A stretch of DNA of 40,739 bases from Clostridia bacterium (GTDB taxonomy: Bacteria; Bacillota; Clostridia; Christensenellales; Aristaeellaceae), in assembly GCA_017620115.1 (NCBI GenBank), contig JAFZRB010000053.1, forward strand, positions 1-40,739. The letters run 5' to 3'. Position 1 is the stretch's first letter. The number at the start of each line of letters is the position of its first letter. The notes under the pieces are model-generated. The model was not told the DNA's origin. It saw nothing but the letters and a program-made list of their open reading frames with translations, and did no database searches. A program made the position numbers and the translations under genes. Positions 4,285 through 32,606 of the stretch are shown one piece after another.

Positions 4285-6066
4285 CTACACTCCTTCACTC
4301 TCGAACTGGTCGTTTTCTTCCCCATTCTCCTCTTTGGCCACATAACGGGGCAATGTGACCGAGAACTCCGAGCCTTCCCCGAGCTTGGAGTGTACTTCGA
4401 CGGTGCCGCCCATGCTCACCGCGATGTGCTTGACGATGGCCAGGCCCAGGCCGGTGCCGCCCATCGAACGGGAACGGCCTTTATCCACGCGATAGAATCG
4501 CTCGAAGAGCCTGGGCAAATGCTCCTCGGCGATGCCTATGCCCGTATCGCTCACCAGGAAATAGGCGTTTTCGGCCGTTCCGTAAACGGACACGCGCACG
4601 CTGCCGCCGGGCTGGTTATACTTGATGGCGTTTTCGATCAGGTTCATGAGCAGCTGCTCCAGCCTGTCGGAATTGCCCCAAACATAAATCGGCTCGTCGT
4701 TTTCGTTGATGCTGAGGTCGATCTGCTTCTCGCGCGCGTGTATCTGCAGCACCTCGCACACGTCGGCCGCCATTTTGTCCAGGCGCAGGCGGCCCAGGCT
4801 CACTTCGGTATCGCCCGCCTCCAGCTTTGAGATCGACAGGATGTCGTTCACGAGGCGCGTGAGGCGGTTGGCCTCCATCATGATGATATTCAGGAATTTG
4901 CGCGCCATTTCGGGATTGTCGATCGCGCCGTCAAGGAGGGTTTCGACAAAGCCCCGAATCGAGGTGAGCGGCGTTTTCAGCTCGTGCGAGACGTTGGCCG
5001 TAAAGTCGGTGCGCATCTGTTCCAGGCGGCGCAGCTCCGTGATATCCTCGATCATGGCCATAGCGCCCACGACTTCGCCGTCGCGCTTCATGGGCGACAC
5101 ATAGAGCCTGAGGGGCGTGTGTCCGCGGCCGGTCGTGCCCTCGCGCACGGCGATTTCGCTGGTATACACGCCGGGCTGATTCATGCCCTCGCGGAAAAGC
5201 GGTTCAAGCTTAACGTCCTTGTTGAGCTCGGATACCGGCAGCCCCTCGGCCGGCACATGGACGCCGAGAAGCGTCTTGGCGACGGGCGTCATCAGGATGA
5301 CCTTCAAATCGCTGTCGACGGCCAGCATGCCGTTCTGCATTTGGTTCATGACCACGCTCAGCGCCTGATTGCGGCTGTTTCTTCGCTTGAGCTGGTCGCT
5401 GATGCGGTTCGCCACGGCATTGATCTTCGCCGCCGTCCGCGCGCTGCTGCCATGCACGCCCTCTATGCGCTCGTCGAAGCGTCCCTCCGCGAAGGCCTCG
5501 AGCACCTCTTTCGCGCCGCGCGTCAGGCGGTCGCTTTCCCTTGCCAGCAGACTGACGACCACATAGCAGAGCACCGTCAGCAGCAGGAGCAGGATGAACC
5601 GGTAACCGCTCACCATGTCCCAGAAACGCGGCGCCTCGCGCCACATGCGGGCAATCAGCCCGCATTCCGAACGAACCGAGACGAAGATCGTGAGGCCCTT
5701 TCCGTAGAGGCATATATCCGTCCCTGCGCCCTTCTCAATCGCTTCCTGAAAATCGTCGTTGGAGGCGTTTTTGAGAAGGACGGCTGTTCCTCCGCTGTGA
5801 TACAGAACCGTGCCGTCTCCATCCAGCACCGAAAGCCCCACTTCCAGCTCCGCGGCAAGCCCATCCAGCTCGTCCTTCGTCTCGCCCTCAAATGAGGAAA
5901 AAGCCGCAGTGTCCAGGTATTCTGCGGACATGCGGCATAATTGAAGGAGGTCTTCGATCTCGCTGGCCGTCAATCTCTCGAAGGCCGCGCGGGAATACAT
6001 CGCTGAAAAGACGATGCAGCATATGAGGGTGGCGCAGGCTGCTATGAGGGCAACCCGTCTTCTCAT
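4285..6066 (-). CDS. Sensor histidine kinase, PhoR-like (2 TM, HAMP, PAS, HisKA, HATPase)
   Basis: H-box FTANVSHELKTPLTSIRGFVETLLDGA; N/G boxes LIENAIKYN...DTGIGI...GGTGLGLAIVK. The start overlaps the regulator stop (ATGA). Confidence 0.9.
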   Translation of the reverse strand: MRRRVALIAACATLICCIVFSAMYSRAAFERLTASEIEDLLQLCRMSAEYLDTAAFSSFEGETKDELDGLAAELEVGLSVLDGDGTVLYHSGGTAVLLKNASNDDFQEAIEKGAGTDICLYGKGLTIFVSVRSECGLIARMWREAPRFWDMVSGYRFILLLLLTVLCYVVVSLLARESDRLTRGAKEVLEAFAEGRFDERIEGVHGSSARTAAKINAVANRISDQLKRRNSRNQALSVVMNQMQNGMLAVDSDLKVILMTPVAKTLLGVHVPAEGLPVSELNKDVKLEPLFREGMNQPGVYTSEIAVREGTTGRGHTPLRLYVSPMKRDGEVVGAMAMIEDITELRRLEQMRTDFTANVSHELKTPLTSIRGFVETLLDGAIDNPEMARKFLNIIMMEANRLTRLVNDILSISKLEAGDTEVSLGRLRLDKMAADVCEVLQIHAREKQIDLSINENDEPIYVWGNSDRLEQLLMNLIENAIKYNQPGGSVRVSVYGTAENAYFLVSDTGIGIAEEHLPRLFERFYRVDKGRSRSMGGTGLGLAIVKHIAVSMGGTVEVHSKLGEGSEFSVTLPRYVAKEENGEENDQFESEGV

Positions 6067-6835: not shown

Positions 6836-7288
6836 TTATCGGTTATTCAACAGTTTGTTCAGTTCCTCAATGAAGTTCTCCAGATCGGTGAACTGCCGGT
6901 ATACCGACGCGAACCGCACGTAAGAAACCTTGTCAAGCTCCTTCAGGCCGTCCATCACCATTTCGCCGATCTCGGCGCTGGTGATTTCCTGATCGTTGGC
7001 GTAGGCCCTCATCTCGATCCTGCTCGTCAGCTCGTCGATATCCGACATGGAAACCGGCCGCTTTTCGCAGGCTTTCAGGATGCCCTGGCGCAGCTTTTCC
7101 GAATCAAAGGGTTCGCGGCGCTTATCCTTCTTGACCACCATCAGCGGAATGGTGTCGACCTTTTCATACGTCGTGAAGCGCCTGCCGCATTTTTCGCACT
7201 CGCGGCGTCTGCGGATCGAATTGCCGTCTTCAACGGCCCGTGAATCGACCACACGGCTTTCCTCGCATCCGCAGTATATGCACCTCAT
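6836..7288 (-). CDS. nrdR: Transcriptional repressor NrdR
   Basis: MRCIYCGCEESRVVDSR...RRRRECEKCGRRFTTYE zinc ribbon plus ATP-cone. ATG at 7288; the track start at 7312 is over-extended. Confidence 0.9.
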   Translation of the reverse strand: MRCIYCGCEESRVVDSRAVEDGNSIRRRRECEKCGRRFTTYEKVDTIPLMVVKKDKRREPFDSEKLRQGILKACEKRPVSMSDIDELTSRIEMRAYANDQEITSAEIGEMVMDGLKELDKVSYVRFASVYRQFTDLENFIEELNKLLNNR

Positions 7289-7318
7289 CCATATGCCTCC
7301 CCTAAGATACATGTAAGT

Positions 7319-7347
7319 ATTTTACCGGCGACCGTTCATTTTGTCAA
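7319..7347 (-). promoter_or_regulatory. Sigma-A-type promoter for nrdR
   Basis: The minus strand reads TTGACA (7347-7342), 17 nt, TAAAAT (7324-7319), about 30 nt upstream of the nrdR ATG. Confidence 0.55.
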
Positions 7348-7387
7348 GTAGTTTACAGTAGATTTGTGTCTGATAACTAAATTTAGG

Positions 7388-7639
7388 TCAACAATTTTGA
7401 AAGAAGCTGGCATTGAGTTCAACTAAAATAACATCGTCCCCGATGCGCCTTACATAACTCCACGGTATCACAATGCCTTCCCGCACGCTGCGGAGCATTC
7501 CCTTCCAGCCCGTCTGGCTGGGCACGACCAGCGCCACGGCGCATGCCTGATCGTTCAGTTCGATGTCTATCGGATGTCCGTAGCGCTTGCCGTCGCATAT
7601 GTTTATGACTTCCTTTTCGCGCAGCTCAGAAAAACCCAT
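7388..7639 (-). CDS. ylmC: YlmC/YmxH-family sporulation protein (PRC-barrel)
   Basis: MGFSELREKEVINICDGKRYGHPIDIELN... is typical of YlmC/YmxH. ATG at 7639 follows GAGGTGA; the track start at 7657 is a TTG. Its position downstream of sigG matches Bacillus synteny. Confidence 0.8.
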   Translation of the reverse strand: MGFSELREKEVINICDGKRYGHPIDIELNDQACAVALVVPSQTGWKGMLRSVREGIVIPWSYVRRIGDDVILVELNASFFQNC

Positions 7640-7726
7640 AGCGATCACCTCGATCAATTCTATGTATTCTGGCCGCGGCGTGGTGACAACGTTTGCAAAA
7701 AACGGGAAAGAAGCGGATCGTCCCGG

Positions 7727-8221
7727 TCAGACGTAACGCTGCATCTGCCTGAGCGCCGCTTTTTCCAGGCGGGATACCTGCGCCTGGGAGATGCCGATTT
7801 CCTCGGCCACTTCCATCTGCGTCCGCCCTTCAAAATAGCGTCTTTCGATGATTCCCCGCTCACGTTCGCCCAGATGCTCCATAGCCTGCCGTAGCGACAG
7901 GCTGCGCACCCAGTCGTCCGCGTCCACCCGCTCGTCCTTCACCTGATCCATGACGCAGATCGGCTCGCCGCCATCCTGAAAGACCGGTTCAAAAAGCGAA
8001 ACGGGATCCTGAATGGCGTCCATGGCGAAAGCGACTTCCCTGTCGCCGCAGCCGACCTCCGCCGCGATTTCCGCGTTGTCCGGTTCGCGGCCCAGCTTAT
8101 AGGTCAGCGCCTCGCGCGCCTTGAGCGCCCTGTAGGCCAGATCGCGCAGCGACCGGCTCACGCGAATCTGGTTGTTGTCGCGCAGATACCGCCGTATTTC
8201 GCCGGCGATCATTGGCATGGC
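7727..8221 (-). pseudogene. sigG: 3' segment of split sporulation sigma factor sigma-G gene (part of region 2.4 through region 4.2); about 90-100 N-terminal codons absent
   Basis: ...PMIAGEIRRYLRDNNQIRVSRSLRD...DAIQDPVSLFEP...GRTQMEVAEEIGISQAQVSRLEKAA matches B. subtilis SigG (recalled from memory) almost motif for motif, and fits it better than SigF. Upstream of codon 8219-8221 the frame reads the unrelated ...SDRLFRQQT and reaches a stop at 8333-8335 with no start codon. Confidence 0.85.
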
Positions 8222-8243
8222 GGTCTGTTGTCGAAACAGTCGG

Positions 8244-9602
8244 TCACTGGCGGTAGTGAATGCTGACGGCTCCCCCGTCGATCTCCACCCGTTCGATGAG
8301 CTCCCGCGCCACCACGCGCTTTTCCTCAGCCGTCATCCGGTCCCACGCCTGGGCGAGGCGGCGTATTTCCCCGCGCTGCCGCTCCGATTCTTCCTCGCGC
8401 CGTCCGGCCTGCAGCGCTTTGCGCTCCTCCTCGCGCAGCGTGTCCAGCAGGCGTTTCTGCTCGGCGATACTGTCCGCGAGAAGCTCGTCTTCAGCCGCGG
8501 CGTAAAGCGCGTACAAACGCCTGAGCCGCCGCTCTGTTTCGCGGATCCGGCCGGCAAGCGCGTCGCGCTCCGTTTCGCGCGGTCGATCGCCGGTCTCCGG
8601 CGGCTGGGAAAGCGCCCTGTCCAGAAAATCATCCACAACTGCGGCCTCCACTTCGTCCGCCCATGCCTTTTCGTTGTCGCAATTCTCGTCGCGGATGAGA
8701 TAGCGCTTGCTCCGCTGCTGGGAATAGCAGGTCAGTTTATAGCCGTTTCTCCCCCATTTCTGATAGCGCATCCTCGCGCCGCACCGGCCGCAGTACACAA
8801 GGCCCGTGAGCAGGTGAACGCTTTTGAAGCTGCGCGCGCTGCTGCGGCGGCTTTTTTGTTCCTGCGCCGCCAGAAACGTGGCCTCGTCCACGATCGCCTC
8901 GTGCCGCCCGCGGTATTCCGCGCCGTTATACTCGATCAGCCCGATATTCGACTTTCTGCTCAATATGTCTCTGACCTGCTTCTCATGCTTCAGGCCGGTC
9001 ATTTCGGCGATGCGCGCCGTCGGGACGCCGTCCAGGTACAGGCGGTATATGAGCCGCACGGTCGCCGCGTCTTCATTGGGCGTCAGCACGCCCCGCGCTC
9101 TGTCATAGTCGTAGCCAAAGGGCGGATGACCGCCGCCCATCCAAAGCCCGTCTCGCACGCGCTCCTTCATGCCCATGCGCGTGCGTTCGCGGATGGTCTC
9201 GCGCTCGAGCTGCGCGAACGCCGACATGATGCCCAGCATGGCCCGGCCCATCGGCGTGCCCGTGTCCATGTTTTCGTTGAGCGAGGTAAAGCCGACGCCG
9301 GCCGGATTGAACACGTCCTCGATGAGATACAGCGTGTCCTTCTGGCTGCGCGAGAGCCGGTCCAGCTTGTAAACGACCACCTGCGATATGAAACCGGCCT
9401 TCACATCGTCGATGAGGCGTTTCATTTCGGGCCGATCGATATTGCTGCCGGTAAAGCCGCCGTCGACGTAGAACCGGTAGTCCGTCCAGCCCCGGCTGCG
9501 GCAATAGCCTTCCAGCATATCTTTCTGGGCGTCCACGGAATAACCCTCAAACTGGGCGTCCGTCGATACGCGGATGTAAAGCGCCGCGAGTTTTTTCTTC
9601 AT
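8244..9602 (-). CDS. Large serine recombinase (SpoIVCA/phage-integrase-like; resolvase catalytic domain, recombinase domain, zinc ribbon, coiled coil)
   Basis: LAALYIRVSTDAQ (catalytic Ser motif), VVVYKLDRLSRS, GGHPPFGYDY, zinc ribbon LVYCGRCGARMRY...LTCY, and a Glu/Arg-rich coiled-coil tail. 452 aa. Confidence 0.95.
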   Translation of the reverse strand: MKKKLAALYIRVSTDAQFEGYSVDAQKDMLEGYCRSRGWTDYRFYVDGGFTGSNIDRPEMKRLIDDVKAGFISQVVVYKLDRLSRSQKDTLYLIEDVFNPAGVGFTSLNENMDTGTPMGRAMLGIMSAFAQLERETIRERTRMGMKERVRDGLWMGGGHPPFGYDYDRARGVLTPNEDAATVRLIYRLYLDGVPTARIAEMTGLKHEKQVRDILSRKSNIGLIEYNGAEYRGRHEAIVDEATFLAAQEQKSRRSSARSFKSVHLLTGLVYCGRCGARMRYQKWGRNGYKLTCYSQQRSKRYLIRDENCDNEKAWADEVEAAVVDDFLDRALSQPPETGDRPRETERDALAGRIRETERRLRRLYALYAAAEDELLADSIAEQKRLLDTLREEERKALQAGRREEESERQRGEIRRLAQAWDRMTAEEKRVVARELIERVEIDGGAVSIHYRQ

Positions 9603-9727
9603 TTGCGCCCTCTCCGCCGCACATTTTCAACCACCCGCGCGACCCGTTCCGATCTTAACGGCGTCGCGTTGATCTCCTCATGCCGGACCGGCCGCCCGGC
9701 CAGAAAACGCCTCGTTACGGTTATCAT
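9599..9727 (-). CDS. Hypothetical 42-aa basic protein translationally coupled to the recombinase (speculative)
   Basis: Not in the ORF track (under 60 aa). ATG at 9727 follows GGAGGTGA by 7 nt. Translation is MITVTRRFLAGRPVRHEEINATPLRSERVARVVENVRRRGRK. Its TGA overlaps the recombinase ATG (AAATGA). I recognise no homology. Confidence 0.3.
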   Translation of the reverse strand: MITVTRRFLAGRPVRHEEINATPLRSERVARVVENVRRRGRK

Positions 9728-9750
9728 ATGCCGGATCACCTCCATATCGT

Positions 9751-9778
9751 CATTTTTCCCGCTTTCCGGCGCTTATAC
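9751..9778 (-). promoter_or_regulatory. Candidate forespore (sigma-F-like) promoter upstream of the recombinase module (weak call)
   Basis: The minus strand reads GTATA (9778-9774), 14 nt, GGAAAAATG (9759-9751). The textbook sigma-F consensus is GCATR-15-GGHRARHTX. The -10 fits fully, but the spacer is 1 nt short and the -35 uses T for C. Confidence 0.2.
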
Positions 9779-9859: not shown

Positions 9860-10078
9860 GTTTCATAACAGGCGCTGACGGGAAGAGTAGGTTTATGCCC
9901 CGGCTGTCCAGAGAGAGCCGCGTTCGCTGAGAGCGGCTCAGCGGCATCTTCCGAACGACACCCCCGAGCCTCCGTCCCATCGGACGGCGCGACGCATGCG
10001 ATATCATGCGCAGAGCAGCAAGCAGGGTGGCACCACGAACGGCTTTTCGTCCCTACGGGACAGAAGCCGTCTTTTTAT
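9860..10078 (+). promoter_or_regulatory. T-box riboswitch leader, Asp specifier (GAC), with intrinsic terminator
   Basis: Stem I elements are GGGAAGAGTAG and CCAGAGAGAG. The specifier-loop candidate is GAC followed by A at 9957-9960. The T-box sequence AGCAGGGTGGCACCACG lies at 10021-10037. The terminator ACGGCTTTTCGTCCC/GGGACAGAAGCCGT plus CTTTTTATT lies at 10039-10078. It sits directly upstream of aspS. Confidence 0.85.
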
Positions 10079-10141
10079 TGCCGCCCAGGCGTCCCTTATG
10101 AAGATGATCCATGCAACCCATACAGTCAGGAGGCGAAACCC

Positions 10142-11905
10142 ATGTTCCAATCCCGCACCCATACCTGCAATGAGCTACGCCTCTCCAACGCCGGCGAAAA
10201 GGTCACGATCGTCGGCTGGATGGAGAATGTTCGAGAGGTCGGATCGACGCTGGCCTTCGTCATCGTGCGCGACTTTTACGGCACCACGCAGGTGGTCGTC
10301 GAAAACAACGACGCGCTCATGGCCGTGGTGAAGGGGCTCAACTGCGAGTCCACCATCTCCGTGACAGGCACCGTGCGCGAGCGCAGCAGCAAGAACCCCA
10401 AACTGCCCACAGGCGACATCGAGATCGTGCCCGAGGCCATCGAGGTGCTGGGCCGCTGCATCTACAACGAGCTGCCCTTCGAGATCAACCGCTCCCGAGA
10501 GGCCGACGAGAACACCCGCCTGCGCTACCGTTACCTCGACCTGCGCAATCCCGAGGTCAAGGCCAAGATCGTTCTGCGCAGCCGGATCGTGGCTGAGCTG
10601 CGCCGCTCCATGACGGATCACGGCTTCCTCGAAATCACCACGCCCATCCTCACCAGCTCTTCGCCCGAAGGCGCGCGCGACTATCTCGTGCCTTCCCGCC
10701 TGCATCCGGGCAAGTTCTACGCGCTGCCGCAGGCCCCCCAGCAGTTCAAGCAGCTGCTCATGACCTCCGGCTTCGACCGCTACTTCCAGATCGCCCCCTG
10801 CTTCCGCGACGAGGACGCCCGCGCGGACCGCTCGCCCGGCGAGTTCTACCAGCTGGACATGGAGATGGCGTTCGCCTCGCAGGAGGATGTGTTCGCCGTG
10901 CTCGAAGACGTGCTGCCGCCCATCTTCGCCAAATACGGCAAATACGACCGCGCTTCCTCCGCGCCCTTCCGCCGCATCGCCTACAACGAGGCCATGGACC
11001 GCTACGGCTCCGACAAGCCCGACCTGCGCATCAGCCTCGTGGTCGACGACCTCACCGACCTCTGCCAGGGCGTCGGCTTCGAACCCTTCGAGGGCAACGT
11101 GGTGAAGGCCGTCGTCGCCCCGAACTTCGACAAAACGCGCAAGTTCATCGACGGCCTGTGCAAGGACGTCGAAACCGCCACCGCCAGCAAGGCTTACTGG
11201 TTCAAGGTCAACGAGGACGGCTCTTTCGCGGGCGGCATCGCGAAATTCCTGGCGGATAAAAACGCGGCTGTCACCGCGGCGCTTTCGCTCAAGCCCGGCT
11301 GCGCCGTGTTCCTCGCCGCCGGCAAGAAGACCGCCGCCCAGAAGACCGCCGGCGTCATCCGCAAGCTGCTGGGCAACGCCGTGGACGCCTACATGGACAG
11401 GGATAAATACGAATTCTGCTGGATCGTGGATTTCCCGATGTACGAAATCGGCGAGGAATCCGGCGAGCTGGAATTCTGCCACAACCCCTTCTCCATGCCC
11501 CAGGGCGGTCTGAAGGCGCTCACGGAAAAGGATCCGCTGGATATCTACGCCTGGCAGTACGATCTGGTCTGCAACGGCGTGGAGCTCTCCTCCGGCGCGG
11601 TGCGCAATCACGATCCCGAAATCATGATCAAGGCGTTTGAAATCGTCGGCCTGGGTGAGGCCGATGTGAAGGCCAAATTCCCGGCCATGTACAACGCCTT
11701 CTGCTACGGCGCGCCGCCGCACGCGGGCATCGCTCCCGGCGTCGACCGCATGGTCATGCTCATCGCGGGCGAAGAGAGCATCCGCGAGATCATTCCCTTC
11801 CCGATGAACAAGAACGCGCAGGATCTGATGATGGGCGCTCCTTCGGCGGTCGAGCCGAAGCAGCTCAGCGACGTTCACATCGCCATCGTGGAAGACAAAA
11901 AGTAA
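10142..11905 (+). CDS. aspS: Aspartate--tRNA ligase (bacterial type)
   Basis: 587 aa. Class II motifs FYALPQAPQQFKQLLM, QIAPCFRDEDARADRSPGEFYQLDME and GAPPHAGIAPGVDRMVML. RBS AGGAGG. Confidence 0.97.
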   Translation: MFQSRTHTCNELRLSNAGEKVTIVGWMENVREVGSTLAFVIVRDFYGTTQVVVENNDALMAVVKGLNCESTISVTGTVRERSSKNPKLPTGDIEIVPEAIEVLGRCIYNELPFEINRSREADENTRLRYRYLDLRNPEVKAKIVLRSRIVAELRRSMTDHGFLEITTPILTSSSPEGARDYLVPSRLHPGKFYALPQAPQQFKQLLMTSGFDRYFQIAPCFRDEDARADRSPGEFYQLDMEMAFASQEDVFAVLEDVLPPIFAKYGKYDRASSAPFRRIAYNEAMDRYGSDKPDLRISLVVDDLTDLCQGVGFEPFEGNVVKAVVAPNFDKTRKFIDGLCKDVETATASKAYWFKVNEDGSFAGGIAKFLADKNAAVTAALSLKPGCAVFLAAGKKTAAQKTAGVIRKLLGNAVDAYMDRDKYEFCWIVDFPMYEIGEESGELEFCHNPFSMPQGGLKALTEKDPLDIYAWQYDLVCNGVELSSGAVRNHDPEIMIKAFEIVGLGEADVKAKFPAMYNAFCYGAPPHAGIAPGVDRMVMLIAGEESIREIIPFPMNKNAQDLMMGAPSAVEPKQLSDVHIAIVEDKK

Positions 11906-27772: not shown

Positions 27773-28318
27773 GTGAAAAGACGTCGAATTCTCGCGTGGC
27801 TGGCGCTGACAGCGGCCGGAATGCTGCTGAACATGCCGAAAACCCTCTCCGATACCCCCTGCAACGCCTATATCCGCCTGCATGTAGCAGCCAACAGCGA
27901 CAGCGCGTGGGATCAGGGCGTGAAGCTGGCCGTGCGCGACGCCGTGCGCGCGGAGGCCGCGGCCCTGCTGGCCGGCTGCGAAACAACGGAGGATGCCTGG
28001 CCGCTGCTGCAGGACAGCGCAGGCCAGATCGAAGAAGCGGCCCGCGCCGCGCTGCTCGAATGGGATCCGGACTGCGCGGCGTCCGTCTCAGCCGGCGTGT
28101 ATCCGTTTCCAGAGCGGGTTTATGACGGCGTGACGCTGCCCGCGGGCGAGTACCGGGCGATTCGCGTTTCGCTTGGCAAAGGAGAGGGCAAAAACTGGTG
28201 GTGCGTGCTGTTCCCTTCGCTTTGCCTGCCCGCGGGCGGCGACGGCGGGGAAACGGTCGTGTTTTACTCCGCCCTGGGCCGCTGGCTCGCGGGGCTGTTC
28301 GGGAGGGATGCCGCATGA
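27773..28318 (+). CDS. spoIIR: Stage II sporulation protein R
   Basis: GTG at 27773 lies 7 nt after GGAGG. IRLHVAANSDSAWDQGVKLAVRDAV...LPAGEYRAIRVSLGKGEGKNWWCVLFPSLC matches the SpoIIR signature. It is embedded in a longer artefactual track ORF (26972-28318). Confidence 0.9.
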   Translation: MKRRRILAWLALTAAGMLLNMPKTLSDTPCNAYIRLHVAANSDSAWDQGVKLAVRDAVRAEAAALLAGCETTEDAWPLLQDSAGQIEEAARAALLEWDPDCAASVSAGVYPFPERVYDGVTLPAGEYRAIRVSLGKGEGKNWWCVLFPSLCLPAGGDGGETVVFYSALGRWLAGLFGRDAA

Positions 28319-29004
28319 ACAGGCGCTCGATACTGGCGCTGACGGCGCTGATTTCAGCCGCGCTGGCCCTCTCCCTCTCTGTCCTGTTTCCGGCAAGCGC
28401 CGCGGTCGTGCTCGAGGTGGGCTCCAGCGGCAGCAACGTCGCGAAAGTACAGCAGCGTCTGATTCAATTCGGCTACCTGAAGGGCGAGGCGGACGGACGC
28501 TACGGCGAAGCGACGCGGGACGCCGTTATACTGTTTCAGAAGCGCAACGGCCTGACGGTGGACGGCCGCGTGGGCGCGAGCACGGCGGCGGCGCTGGGCG
28601 TAACGCTGTCCTCGTCCTCGAGCGCAGCGGTATCGGCAACGGCGTCGGTATCGTCCGATCAGTATCTGCTCGCGCGGCTGGTGTACGCCGAGGCGCGCGG
28701 CGAATCATACAAGGGCAAGGTCGCCGTGGCGGCTGTCGTGCTGAACCGGGTGTCCTCCGCCTCGTTTCCGAACACCATTTCGGGCGTCATCTACCAGAAA
28801 GGCGCGTTTGAGTCGGTCAGCAACGGTTCCATCAACCTCACGCCGGACAGCGATTCCATCCGGGCCGCCAGGGAAGCCATGAACGGATGGGATCCGACCG
28901 GAGGATGCCTCTACTTTTACAACGCCCGCACCGTCTCCTCGTCGTCGTGGATACTGTCCCGCACCGTCAAAACCGTCATCGGCAGCCACTCCTTCGCCAC
29001 CTGA
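28315..29004 (+). CDS. sleB: Spore cortex-lytic enzyme SleB (PG-binding domain plus Hydrolase_2 domain)
   Basis: Signal peptide; VAKVQQRLIQFGYLKGEADGRYGEATRDAVILFQKRNGLTVDG; LARLVYAEARGESYKGKVAVAAVVLNRV...GVIYQKGAFE. Its ATG overlaps the spoIIR stop (ATGA). Confidence 0.9.
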   Translation: MNRRSILALTALISAALALSLSVLFPASAAVVLEVGSSGSNVAKVQQRLIQFGYLKGEADGRYGEATRDAVILFQKRNGLTVDGRVGASTAAALGVTLSSSSSAAVSATASVSSDQYLLARLVYAEARGESYKGKVAVAAVVLNRVSSASFPNTISGVIYQKGAFESVSNGSINLTPDSDSIRAAREAMNGWDPTGGCLYFYNARTVSSSSWILSRTVKTVIGSHSFAT

Positions 29005-29045
29005 CAGGGGCGTAATACCGAATCGAGCTATCCGGGAGGTCTTTT

Positions 29046-30371
29046 ATGAAGCTGTTCGTCACGCGCCGTCGGGCGCTGCAAACGACGGCCGCCGCGCTGG
29101 CGGCGCTGCTCGTCGCCTTCGTCATCTATTCGCGGGCGCAGGCCGGGAAGATCAACGCGCTGCAAACCAGCATCAGCGCGTCGTATGAGCGCGCGTTCTA
29201 CGAGACGGCGTCGCTGCTGAACAACATCGAGGTGAATCTGGAAAAGGCGCAGGTCACGGGCAGCGGCGCGCGGCGGGTTTCGCTGCTCGGCCAGATCGGC
29301 CGCGACGCCGCGAGCGCGCAGAGCAATCTGACCGCCCTTCCCGCGTCGATGGCGGCCATATCGGAATCGCTGAAATTCGTCAATCAGGTCGGCGACATCG
29401 CCGCCACATTGAGCGAACGGCCGAACGGCGATCTCTCCGAAGAGGAGATCGAGCTGCTCGCCAGGCTGCACGGCAGCTGCGTGAATTTAAACAACCTCAT
29501 CGACGGCATCGTGTCCGATATCGAGGGAGGACTGAATCCGCTGGCGAAAGCCGCGGCGGGCGCGCCGGTCATGGCGGCGGAAAACGTCGAGCTGCAGGAA
29601 ACGGAAATCGACTACCCCATCCTGCTCTATGACGGCCCCTTCTCCGACGGCCGGGGCGACGCGGTGTTCCGGGCGCTGAGCGGCGATGATATCGGCGCGG
29701 ACGAGGCGCTGCGAATCGCGCGCAGATTCATCGGCGAGGATCGCATTTCCGGCGCGTGGATCGCCGGCGAAAGCGAGATTCCCATGCCCTGTTATGAGAT
29801 CAGCGCATACACCGGCGACGGGCTGCTTTCGCTGGCAGTGTCGAAGCAGGGCGGGCATGCCGTCTATATGATGGTAGACGGCGCGGCCCGGGAACGCCTG
29901 CACTCCCAGGCCTCCCTCATCGACATGGCGGCGTCGTTTCTGAAAAGCCGCGGTTATCCGCCCGTCGAAGTGAGCTACTGGATGACCTTCGACGGGTATC
30001 TCACCGTCAATTTTGCCGCCGTACAGGATGGCGTGCTGCTCTACCCCGATCTGATCAAGGTGCAGATGAGCATGGAGAGCGGCCTGCCCGTAGGGCTGGA
30101 GGCCGTCAATTACCTCGCCAACCATGCCGAGCGCCGCCTGCCGGAGCCGAAGCTTGACGAAAATGAGGCCCGCGAAAGACTCAATTCAGCGCTTACGGCG
30201 GAACGCGGCAGGCTGTGCGTCATCCCGCTGAACAATGGCGAGGCGTTCTGCTGGGAATTCTCCGCCTCGGCGGACGGAGCGCGTTATCTCGTCTACATCG
30301 ACGCGATGACAGGCGAGGAGCGCAATATCTACCGCGTGGTGGAAGATGAAAACGGCCAGCTGGTCATCTGA
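29046..30371 (+). CDS. ypeB: Germination protein YpeB (SleB partner; PepSY-type C-terminal repeats)
   Basis: N-terminal anchor, the SYERAFYETASLLNNIEVNLEKAQV region, position immediately after sleB, 441 aa. Confidence 0.85.
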   Translation: MKLFVTRRRALQTTAAALAALLVAFVIYSRAQAGKINALQTSISASYERAFYETASLLNNIEVNLEKAQVTGSGARRVSLLGQIGRDAASAQSNLTALPASMAAISESLKFVNQVGDIAATLSERPNGDLSEEEIELLARLHGSCVNLNNLIDGIVSDIEGGLNPLAKAAAGAPVMAAENVELQETEIDYPILLYDGPFSDGRGDAVFRALSGDDIGADEALRIARRFIGEDRISGAWIAGESEIPMPCYEISAYTGDGLLSLAVSKQGGHAVYMMVDGAARERLHSQASLIDMAASFLKSRGYPPVEVSYWMTFDGYLTVNFAAVQDGVLLYPDLIKVQMSMESGLPVGLEAVNYLANHAERRLPEPKLDENEARERLNSALTAERGRLCVIPLNNGEAFCWEFSASADGARYLVYIDAMTGEERNIYRVVEDENGQLVI

Positions 30372-30519: not shown

Positions 30520-31812
30520 ATGACAGTCATGGAAAAGCTCAGCATACTGACCGACGCCGCCAAGTACGACGCGGCCTGCACGTCCAGCGGCGTCGGGCGC
30601 GCCGCGAAAGCGGGCGGCATCGGCAATTCCATGGCCTGCGGCATCTGCCACAGTTTTTCCGCGGATGGGCGATGCATATCGCTTTTGAAGGTGCTCATGA
30701 GCAACTCCTGCGCCTATGACTGCTCCTACTGCGTCAATCGCCGCTCGAACGACACGCCGCGCGCCACCTTCACCCCGCGCGAGCTGGCCGAGCTCACCAT
30801 GGCCTTCTACCGGCGCAACTACATCGAAGGGCTTTTCCTCAGCTCCGGCGTGCTCAAAAGCCCAGACCGCACCATGGAGCTGATGATCAGAACGCTCGAA
30901 CTCCTGCGCGGCGAATACCGTTTCGGCGGCTATATCCACGCCAAGGCCATTCCCGGCACGGACGAGCGGCTCGTGCGCCGGCTGGGGCAGCTGGCCGACC
31001 GCATGAGCGTCAACCTCGAACTGCCTTCCGGGCAGAGCCTCACGCTGCTCGCGCCGGACAAGAGCCGCGAGGCTGTGCTGCGCCCGATGAACCAGATCGC
31101 GCAGGGCATCCGGCAGACGCAGAACGAGCTGACCGTCTACCGCCACACGCCGCGGTTCGTGCCCGCCGGGCAGAGCACGCAGATGATCGTGGGCGCCTCG
31201 CCTGAAACCGACCGGCAGATACTCACGCTCACGGCCGCGCTGTACAAACAATACGGTCTGAAGCGCGTGTTCTTCTCGGCCTACATGCCCGTCGTGGCCG
31301 ACAGCCGGCTGCCCGCGCTCAACACGCGGCCGCCGCTGCTGCGCGAGCACAGGCTCTATCAGGCCGACTGGCTGCTGCGCTATTACGGCTTTTCCGTCGG
31401 GGAGATCCTGGATGAGCGCCAGCCCAACTTCCATCCCCTGCTCGATCCGAAATGCAACTGGGCGGTCAACCATCCCGAATTCTTCCCGGTGGAGGTCAAC
31501 CGTGCGGACTACGAAGCGCTGCTGCGCGTGCCGGGCATCGGCGTCACCAGCGCGCGGCGCATCCTGCAGGCCAGGCGCGGCGGCCCGCTCACAGCCGAGG
31601 GCCTCCGGCGGCTGGGCGTGGTCATGAAGCGCGCGCAGTACTTCCTCACGGCCGGCGGCCATATGCCCGCGCGCGCCTCGCTCAACCGGGCGCAGCTCAT
31701 CGGCGCGCTGGCGGCCGAACGGGGCATGCGCCTTCCGGAAAACGCGCGCCAGCTCTCCTTTTTCGACACGACGGAGGAGGATCTTTCAAAATGCCTGACA
31801 GGACAAATCTGA
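30520..31812 (+). CDS. Putative DNA modification/repair radical SAM protein (TIGR03916-like) with C-terminal helix-hairpin-helix
   Basis: CAYDCSYCVNR is a CxxxCxxC radical SAM motif. The C-terminus LLRVPGIGVTSARRILQARR is an HhH motif. The gene is paired with a DUF4130 gene, as this family always is. Confidence 0.9.
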   Translation: MTVMEKLSILTDAAKYDAACTSSGVGRAAKAGGIGNSMACGICHSFSADGRCISLLKVLMSNSCAYDCSYCVNRRSNDTPRATFTPRELAELTMAFYRRNYIEGLFLSSGVLKSPDRTMELMIRTLELLRGEYRFGGYIHAKAIPGTDERLVRRLGQLADRMSVNLELPSGQSLTLLAPDKSREAVLRPMNQIAQGIRQTQNELTVYRHTPRFVPAGQSTQMIVGASPETDRQILTLTAALYKQYGLKRVFFSAYMPVVADSRLPALNTRPPLLREHRLYQADWLLRYYGFSVGEILDERQPNFHPLLDPKCNWAVNHPEFFPVEVNRADYEALLRVPGIGVTSARRILQARRGGPLTAEGLRRLGVVMKRAQYFLTAGGHMPARASLNRAQLIGALAAERGMRLPENARQLSFFDTTEEDLSKCLTGQI

Positions 31813-32606
31813 TCTACCTTTACGACGGCAGCTTCGACGGGCTGCTCTCCTGCGTGTTTGAGAGCTATGCGCGGCACGAGCTGCCGGACGCCATCCTCTC
31901 CCCCGACGACGCGCAGACCATGCTGTTTGAATCGCGCCGCGTGGAGACGGACTATGCGAAATCCGAACGGGTTTTGCGCGGCATACAAATGAAGATTTCG
32001 CCCGAGGCGGCCGATTTCATCCGCATGGCGCACCTGAGCTGCGTCTTTGAGCGCGACCGGCGCATACTGATCTTCCTGAAGCTGGGTTTCTCCGTTGGCC
32101 CCGGCGTCATGAACAGGCTGGCCGACGCGCGCGTAAACGCGCTGATGAGCGGCGTGAGATACCTCGAGCGCGAGGCGCATCACTACATGGGCTTCGTGCG
32201 GTTCACGGAGATCGACGGCGTGCTGGCCTCGGTCATCCAGCCGAAGAACCGCGTGCTTCCCCTGCTCGACCCGCATTTTTCCGACCGCTTCAACGCCGAG
32301 CGCTTCATCATCCACGACGCCGCGCACCATTGCGCGCTGATGCACATGCCGGGCTGCAGCCGCATCGTGCCGATGGACGGGCTGCGCATGACGGCGTCCA
32401 GCCCGCGCGAGCTGCAAATACAGGCGCTGTGGCGCAAATTCCACCAGACCGTCGCCATCGAGGGGCGGCTGAATCCGCAGCTTCAAAGAAGCAACATGCC
32501 GCTGCGTTTCAGGCCGGAGATGACAGAATTTCAGGCGGAGCAATCCGTTGGAAGGGAGTTTGAGTATCATGAGGAAAGTGCCTGTCGGCGTCTTGGCGCA
32601 GTTTGA
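31791..32606 (+). CDS. DUF4130 / TIGR03915-family probable DNA metabolism protein (partner of the radical SAM protein)
   Basis: MPDRTNLIYLYDGSFDGLLSCVFESY...HHYMGFVRFTE...ERFIIHD. ATG at 31791 overlaps the radical SAM gene by 22 nt. The track ORF start at 31452 is over-extended. Confidence 0.85.
   Translation: MPDRTNLIYLYDGSFDGLLSCVFESYARHELPDAILSPDDAQTMLFESRRVETDYAKSERVLRGIQMKISPEAADFIRMAHLSCVFERDRRILIFLKLGFSVGPGVMNRLADARVNALMSGVRYLEREAHHYMGFVRFTEIDGVLASVIQPKNRVLPLLDPHFSDRFNAERFIIHDAAHHCALMHMPGCSRIVPMDGLRMTASSPRELQIQALWRKFHQTVAIEGRLNPQLQRSNMPLRFRPEMTEFQAEQSVGREFEYHEESACRRLGAV

Follow-up and report, generated by a model that had tools for sequence, protein, structure and literature searches.

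A split sigG gene beside a large serine recombinase in Clostridia suggests a DNA switch in the inherited cell line

The contig JAFZRB010000053.1 (assembly GCA_017620115.1, Clostridia bacterium, family Aristaeellaceae) was analyzed over a stretch of 40,739 bp, hereafter called the window. It contains the 3' part of sigG, the gene for the sporulation sigma factor sigma-G, and beside it an intact gene for a large serine recombinase (LSR). The following features, including an attachment-site (att) arm and a small open reading frame (ORF), lie at this locus:

7727–8215, reverse strand: 3' part of sigG, from the codon equivalent to Pro96 to the stop codon, covering SigG regions 2.4, 3 and 4 (tblastn and Pfam)
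8214–8215, reverse strand: inferred crossover dinucleotide CC, the first two bases of the Pro codon in ...YAVPMI...
8216–8238, reverse strand: element-side att arm (P arm), TGTTTCGACAACAGACCGCCATG
8244–9602, reverse strand: intact LSR of 452 aa, with the Pfam domains Resolvase (PF00239, E = 3e-41), Recombinase (PF07508) and Zn_ribbon_recom (PF13408)
9599–9745, reverse strand: small ORF of 42–48 aa, with a likely start at 9727 after GGAGG and a stop overlapping the start of the LSR (ATGA); without a match to a Pfam or PHROG family
9751–9778, reverse strand: sigma-F-type promoter-like site, GTATA-N13-GGGAAAAATG, upstream of the small ORF–LSR operon
6836–7657, reverse strand: native downstream neighbours of sigG, namely a PRC-barrel gene (ylmC/ymxH-like, 7388–7657) and nrdR (6836–7312), with the Pfam domains PRC, Zn_ribbon_NrdR and ATP-cone

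A tblastn search with the SigG sequence of Bacillus subtilis gave a single match in the window, namely residues 95–258 at 8221–7730 on the reverse strand with 60% identity (E = 1e-64). No match to residues 1–94 was found on either strand across the 40.7 kb. The 163-aa ORF at 7727–8218 contains the Pfam domains Sigma70_r3 and Sigma70_r4, and Sigma70_r2 was not found in it. The frame upstream of the homology is an unrelated sequence that is closed by a stop codon at 8333–8335. The original prediction for this DNA had described a sigG gene lacking its N-terminal part beside a 452-aa LSR in the same orientation, ending at 8244; the tblastn and Pfam results bear this out, and the LSR is complete by its domains. 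The downstream gene order that had been taken as native is likewise present. This order is also found after sigG in L025, where the gene is intact, and after the 3' half of L002, L020 and L197 (L numbers are our labels for the loci compared). Beyond nrdR, the window contains a two-component system and then ctsR-mcsA-mcsB.

The LSR carries the features of its class, namely a resolvase domain with a serine nucleophile, a recombinase domain, a zinc ribbon and a coiled-coil region, and its recombination activity is predicted from sequence. An alignment of six relatives shows no variation at the catalytic residues Ser12 (RVSTDAQ) and Arg10 or in the DRLSR motif. The matches in the PDB were the catalytic domain of the TP901-1 integrase (E = 4e-34) and the C-terminal domain of the A118 integrase (residues 138–450, E = 2e-12). 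By these PDB matches, the LSR is a TP901-1/A118-type enzyme. The best matches among annotated phages were integrases of the phiFC1/EFC-1/LR1 type (approximately 40% identity; approximately 41% for phiFC1/EFC-1), and SprA of SPbeta was only distantly similar (E = 1e-6). The integrases of TP901-1, A118 and phiFC1 are thus the closest characterized relatives, and in viral relatives the phage site attP is located directly 3' of the integrase gene. However, these enzymes integrate phages at other sites and none of them is reported to target sigG.

Comparison of the junctions with those of relatives located the break. The switch from sigG to the element occurs, at all N-side and C-side junctions, at the CC of the Pro codon within ...STYAVPMI(I/A)GEIRRY... 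(region 2.4), which places the crossover at 8215–8214. This refines the predicted break near 8220: the Ala-Met codons (8221–8216) that had been counted as sigG belong to the element arm. The LSR stop codon (8246–8244) lies 5 nt from this arm and 28 nt from the CC. The P arm shares the motif TTTCGACA, at a fixed spacing, with L002, L007 and L197. The consensus of the 3'-side arms is TTT(T)C(G)ACA...CAT(G/T) ahead of the CC, and on the 5' side a mirror-image arm follows CC(A/G)ATGA. In L106, the two junctions rebuild an attP that is a perfect 23-bp inverted repeat around the CC (23-CC-23), the structure expected for a serine-integrase attP with a non-palindromic central dinucleotide. Viral contigs contain free attP palindromes directly 3' of homologous LSR genes, and the palindrome of L107 holds GATGATTATCGG, identical to the sigG site; the LSR of L007 gave no match to viral contigs. 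When the halves of relatives are joined at the CC, ...STYAVPMIIGEI... is restored in frame. The window itself holds one hybrid site: no match to the partner arm was found in it, even at 3 mismatches, and repeats around the junction are at chance level.

A search with the 163-aa fragment revealed approximately 50 clusters of proteins of 161–165 aa (69–100% identity; clusters counted at the 90% identity level), all with the same starting residue. Full-length SigG proteins of 256–262 aa were mixed among the matches, and a query with the N-terminal part gave dozens of matching fragments of 96–130 aa. The loci were assigned to types (a) to (d). Type (a) is the type of the window, with the order small ORF, LSR, 3' half, PRC-barrel gene, nrdR, response regulator and kinase, and onward to ctsR-mcsAB-clpC. 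In its relatives L002–L005 (LSR 75% identical to that of the window), L117 (84%) and L197–L206 (73%), upp and uraA lie upstream of the small ORF, at the position of aspS in the window. The order uraA-upp, small ORF, LSR, sigG 3' half, PRC-barrel gene and nrdR is common to these lineages. Since LSRs that are 73–84% identical share their flanks on both sides, the module has been inherited vertically and is older than the divergence of the lineages. Note that four independent assemblies of one species (L197, L199, L200 and L202) stop at one point approximately 4.3 kb upstream of the 3' half, just past a 163-aa ORF, which suggests a repeat or a structural variant.

Type (b) comprises true prophages. 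In L007–L009, small phage-like ORFs are followed by the LSR and the 3' half, and in L015 the 5' half is followed by holin and lysin genes; the LSR side (L007) and the lysis-gene side (L015) come from different samples. IMG/VR prophage borders of this type were found in L113, L207, L210–212, L214, L216–217 and L221. Type (c) consists of compact non-phage elements of 6.8–7.7 kb that are flanked in register by the two halves: L104/L105 (7.7 kb), L106 (6.8 kb) and L124 (7.7 kb). The order in L104/L105 is spoIIGA, sigE, 5' half, nucleoside hydrolase, helix-turn-helix regulator, GH31, AraC, a 46-aa ORF, LSR, MNT/HepT and 3' half. L124 is similar, but its LSR is located at the opposite end and in the opposite orientation. 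L106, with its sigG halves at 4290–4580 and 11,390–11,878, belongs to the finished genome of a cultured organism, Acidaminobacterium chupaoyuni (CP176394.1). The nucleotidyltransferase/HepT toxin–antitoxin pair between LSR and att arm (11,363–11,981 in L104; 2249–2867 in L105) could be an addiction module that stabilizes the compact element.

Type (d) is permuted and is represented by HALE18 scaffold_384 (ENA ERZ28573850, 130 kb), the only lineage in which a single contig carries the two sites. Its 3' half (at 62.2 kb) and 5' half (at 100.2 kb) are on the same strand, with the 3' half lying 38 kb upstream, so that the sites are in direct, permuted orientation, and the att arms still mirror each other (L020, 52,214–72,672; L016, 90,175–110,474). 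Independent Logan assemblies confirm both junctions. In L016 (10,386–11,651) and L012 (10,386–11,654), two lineages without an adjacent LSR, the 5' half with its arm is followed directly by the gene for a conserved protein of 421–422 aa with no Pfam match (87% identity between the two).

Several further observations concern the sigG region of this group. In L119, L120, L124, L210–L212 and L221, LSRs of a second group (37–50% identical to that of the window) lie beside the 5' half and are oriented in the opposite direction; different recombinase lineages have thus targeted sigG in both orientations. The LSR relatives in L118 (57% identity) and L134 (50%) are not adjacent to sigG, which indicates that the family has other targets too. 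In L025 and L011, which carry the nearest intact sigG, the gene is located downstream of tilS-hpt-ftsH and not beside sigE, whereas spoIIGA-sigE precedes the 5' half in split lineages; repeated rearrangement has thus affected the neighbourhood of sigG in this group. In the viral contig L213 (4001–4400), sigG-like sequence passes the usual break (YAISMIIGEIRRYLRDNN) and then diverges, and it may represent a phage-encoded sigma factor or a different split point. L006/P0015 was considered as the closest full-length relative and rejected, because it is an unrelated low-GC contig with an internal 240-bp duplication. This exact tandem duplication (10,060–10,540) starts in sigG from the same YAVPMI codons, with a frameshift upstream, and could reflect either misassembly or a genuine duplication at the att-like site. 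L071, L084, L088 and L097 were also rejected as C-terminal-only candidates, as their genes are intact.

The breadth of these finds bears on whether the junction in the window is real. The source appears to be of metagenome type and many related contigs are short, which would favour an assembly artefact near 8220. Against this, the identical junction occurs in the independent ENA contig L001, more than 15 contigs, from different samples and related species, share the architecture, and one carrier is a finished isolate genome. The misassembly that the original prediction had envisaged at this point can be dismissed, with a negligible probability left to it.

The sequences on both sides of the break were analyzed for selection using the ratio of nonsynonymous to synonymous substitution rates (dN/dS). 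For the 3' half, dN/dS was 0.14 between the window and L002 (Fisher p = 3e-19), 0.16 between the window and L197 and 0.08 between L002 and L197, where the proportion of synonymous differences (pS = 0.37) is not saturated. The same region of the intact orthologues in L011 and L025 gave 0.15. The 5' half gave 0.038 (L012 vs L016), the small ORF 0.175 (L002 vs L197) and the LSR 0.09–0.13 over several pairs (0.13 for the window vs L002; 0.089 for L002 vs L197). The non-coding P arm is identical at 20 of 23 positions (87%) between the window and L197, whereas the divergence at synonymous sites is 51%. Such ratios would not have persisted in a dead gene, and this purifying selection argues that the sigG halves are in use.

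These values bear directly on the idea that sporulation has been lost, or that an intact sigG lies elsewhere, with the 3' fragment and the LSR as relics. It would account for the lack of a 5' half in the 40.7 kb and for an LSR that sits in housekeeping DNA without a second att arm, and a search of genome contigs with a permuted C+N SigG fusion gave only intact sigG genes of other species. However, the dN/dS of the 3' halves among split lineages (0.08–0.16) matches that of the intact genes, and neither frameshifts nor stops were found in the approximately 50 clusters. Moreover, the LSR, small ORF and att arm are under selection, and the sporulation genes spoIIR, sleB and ypeB are intact in the window. 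A decayed remnant is therefore regarded as improbable.

Close relatives encode the same short protein, an outcome that had been named as speaking for a complete, conserved gene of its own. It is nevertheless read here as a gene half, because it has no conserved start or ribosome-binding site, always abuts an att arm and is matched by existing N-terminal fragments. In 10 lineages, no Shine-Dalgarno sequence precedes the 3' part, its only conserved start is the native internal Met, and the upstream arms are pyrimidine-rich. The absence of its own translation signals also sets the 3' part apart from SigO-RsoA, the two-subunit sigma factor of B. subtilis. That factor is the precedent for a two-piece sigma-G, in which the 5' and 3' parts would be translated separately and assemble on RNA polymerase with no DNA rearrangement. 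Both halves are indeed conserved ORFs, and the HALE18 lineage has no LSR beside either of them. In addition to the missing translation signals, this explanation is opposed by the tails of the 5' halves, which vary from 2 to 30 codons, and by the position of the break, which would fall inside the helix of regions 2.3–2.4 as judged from the established structure of the sigma-70 family. It also does not account for why the LSR and both att arms are under selection, and we consider it slightly less probable still than decay.

The small ORF is kept beside LSRs that span 47% to 100% identity, and homologues are found in the same place in L002, L117, L197–206, L104, L106, L007, L120 and L134. On its position and conservation, it is a candidate accessory or directionality factor. 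The promoter-like site upstream of it was found with the pattern GYATA-N13-15-GGnnAnAHTR, a B. subtilis-derived sigma-F consensus with a spacer that was relaxed after the site had been seen. The match at 9778–9751 is the only one in the window on both strands (0.03 expected). At the aligned position, L002, L197 and L198 have GAATA-N14-GGTCACATTG and L117 has GCAGA-N15-GGGGAAGATA. The clade's own sigG promoters read G(Y/A)AT(A/G)-N15-GG(C/T)AA..., and the site of the LSR operon in the window resembles them. Sigma-F-type control of this operon is suggestive only.

The remaining part of the window was also annotated, and the following features mark the surroundings of the module:

10,142–11,905, forward strand: aspS (Pfam tRNA-synt_2, anticodon-binding and GAD), the first housekeeping gene past the LSR module, which marks the end of the conserved module
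27,773–30,371, forward strand: spoIIR, sleB and ypeB, intact (Pfam Spore_II_R, 1.5e-39; Hydrolase_2 and PG_binding_1; YpeB domains)

The part of the window from 10,142 onward encodes aspS, alpha-galactosidase, MATE pump, aminotransferase, amino-acid ABC transporter, glpK, polysaccharide deacetylase, spoIIR, sleB, ypeB, a radical-SAM/DUF4130 pair, ThrE exporter, MgsA-type ATPase and tlyA. Thus, housekeeping and sporulation genes occupy at least 31 kb after the LSR, and the region is not a prophage. No change in GC content or GC skew was found at the sigG/LSR junction. Rfam and tRNA scans of the window found nothing, so it has no tRNA-type att site and no T-box in the 540-bp gap. In B. subtilis, spoIIR is sigma-F-dependent and sleB-ypeB is sigma-G-dependent; their intactness in the window indicates that genes of the forespore line are maintained. 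Note that the listed start of the sleB ORF (28,198) lies within the spoIIR frame, with an overlap of approximately 115 nt, and sleB therefore probably starts further downstream. The pair at 30,520–32,606, a radical-SAM/helix-hairpin-helix protein followed by a DUF4130 protein, is a putative DNA-repair or modification module and is unrelated to the sigG split.

The best reading of the locus is that 8216–9778 is a domesticated LSR module (promoter, small ORF, LSR and 23-bp att arm), joined at the CC to the 3' two-thirds of sigG. The remaining third at the 5' end would lie elsewhere on the chromosome and terminate in the mirror-image arm; as neither a 5' half nor a second arm is present in the window, the partner half should be separated from it by more than 32 kb or be found on the opposite side. 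In sporulating cells, the LSR would recombine the two hybrid sites at the CC and yield sigG in frame, probably together with a directionality factor, for which the small ORF is a candidate. The predicted junction of the joined gene is ...TAYGCNGTNCC|AATGATCGCCGGCGAA, and the attP-type junction would read P arm-CC-P' arm. Expression of the LSR would probably take place in the forespore, from the sigma-F-type promoter. The anatomy, conservation and selection of the locus are shown here, as are its compact, prophage and permuted versions in relatives, and the recombination itself, with its timing, compartment and reversibility, is inferred.

Since the LSR of the window sits among housekeeping genes, the event cannot be the loss of a disposable element and must be reversible or an inversion. 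In the genome of the window, the chromosome would be split into two circles and later rejoined by the LSR alone, or a segment would be inverted. For an LSR without its directionality factor, integration is the default reaction (PMC12286644). In HALE18, recombination would release a 38-kb circle with the joined sigG, nrdR, tyrS, mur/fts genes (ftsZ, ftsA), spoIIGA and sigE. In carriers of the compact elements, the excised circle would be kept and reintegrated, because such elements would otherwise be lost at every sporulation cycle, yet they persist.

A further explanation is that elements and prophages use sigG as a plain attachment site. Carriers would then be asporogenous until stochastic or induced excision, and the halves would be selected in cured cells. 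LSR lineages only 35–50% identical to that of the window, including those of true prophages, share the site, which fits the choice of a bacterial attachment site (attB); the compact elements lack a developmental promoter match, and no joined form was seen. The evidence on the other side comes mainly from the clade of the window, where the module has no mobility genes, has co-diverged with its host (dS > 1) and retains conserved flanking synteny. An element that leaves without return would be lost, and in the window and in the HALE18 lineage excision would part essential genes from the chromosome. In addition, a sigma-F-type promoter precedes the LSR operon of the window. Such a block of sporulation is unlikely, less so than the two explanations without a working rearrangement discussed above.

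Reassembly of sigG by the LSR during sporulation, reversibly or by inversion, is given about an even chance. Several results weigh against it. The 5' half and the partner arm are absent from the 32.5 kb past the break. Neither a joined sigG nor an attP-type rearranged junction was found, and all 10 of the 10 contexts of the L197-type LSR (P0270) have the split form. Among the matches, there was no full-length SigG more than 76% identical to the half of the window. The small ORF has no Pfam or PHROG match and no homology to a known directionality factor. The spacer of the promoter-like site is 13 nt, i.e., 1–2 nt below the consensus, which together with its spacer length derives from work on B. 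subtilis. Regular-expression scans upstream of the compact and prophage-type LSRs (including L104 and L106) gave no match to sigma-F, G, E or K promoters. The HALE18 scaffold has no LSR beside either half. Finally, the carriers of the window clade are uncultured, and their sporulation is presumed. The narrower version, in which sigG is assembled transiently in the forespore by a reversible LSR reaction while the inherited chromosome splits into circles or inverts and is rejoined before outgrowth, is proposed tentatively and is the less probable of the two.

The arrangement was compared with known systems. In skin/SpoIVCA (sigK of B. subtilis and C. difficile), a sporulation sigma gene is likewise split in frame by LSR-carrying DNA and a recombinase is expected to rejoin it; in C. 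difficile, a separate directionality factor provides cell-type control (PMC5025042). However, sigK is a mother-cell gene and its excised DNA is discarded with the terminal cell (PMC4191935, PMC13492144), and the LSR of the window lies amid housekeeping genes with the other half more than 31 kb away. The skin-like architecture proposed originally therefore holds in part: relatives carry both halves in register around LSR elements or prophages, but the window contains no discrete insertion. In SPbeta, SprA and the directionality factor SprB rebuild the sporulation gene spsM using inverted-repeat arms and a short core (PMC4191935, PMC5499854). There, the element is excised specifically in the mother cell and is retained in the genome of the spore; the window contains no prophage. 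The gin element in gerE of B. cereus ATCC 10987 has non-phage cargo and a retained recombinase module (PMC5595907), and L104, L106 and L124 resemble it; unlike sigG, gerE is a mother-cell gene, and the version in the window is not a bounded insertion. Thus, the window shares with this class of intervening elements (skin, SPbeta and gin) a recombinase of its own beside an att site. It differs in that it is not bounded by both halves and that its target, sigG by sequence, is not a mother-cell gene.

Systems outside this class were also considered. In reversible active lysogeny (the Listeria comK prophage and SpyCIM1 at mutL), excision restores a gene and is followed by reintegration, so that the element is not lost (PMC13492144). 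These are discrete prophages with no tie to sporulation or to a developmental germ line, and at sigG reintegration is only proposed. The nifD, fdxN and hupL elements of cyanobacterial heterocysts also restore genes by developmentally timed site-specific excision, and the fdxN element uses the serine recombinase XisF; however, the heterocyst is a terminally differentiated cell without progeny. Full-text literature searches found no published case of a split or interrupted sigG. The statement that all described elements interrupt mother-cell genes also held, as no published case in a forespore gene was found. A 2026 review lists skin and SPbeta as the sole sporulation cases and treats them as non-reversible active lysogeny (PMC13492144).

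The accepted rationale for elements confined to the mother cell is that the rearranged genome is thrown away (PMC4191935), and the SPbeta study described such excisions as confined to this terminally differentiated cell. Sigma-G is forespore-specific in the species studied (PMC4191935, PMC3789829). As the genome of the forespore is inherited, a sigG that is split and under selection breaks this rule. It implies a reversible rearrangement of the inherited chromosome, an inversion or a two-piece sigma factor, none of which has been described for sigma-G. The split sigG is the theme of the sporulation intervening elements in a germ-line gene, with unusual non-insertional geometries, and its selected pieces together with the LSR suggest an undescribed DNA switch in the inherited cell line. 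The split is common in gut Clostridia: 3' halves form approximately 50 clusters, and several recombinase lineages as well as real prophages are involved. It would therefore also bear on the interaction of phages with spores and on genome annotation, where split genes may be scored as pseudogenes or as missing. The finished genome of the cultured carrier A. chupaoyuni makes the question directly testable. If the reversible reaction in the forespore is true, it would represent a programmed and reversible rearrangement of the germ-line genome in a bacterium, derived from a domesticated phage integrase.

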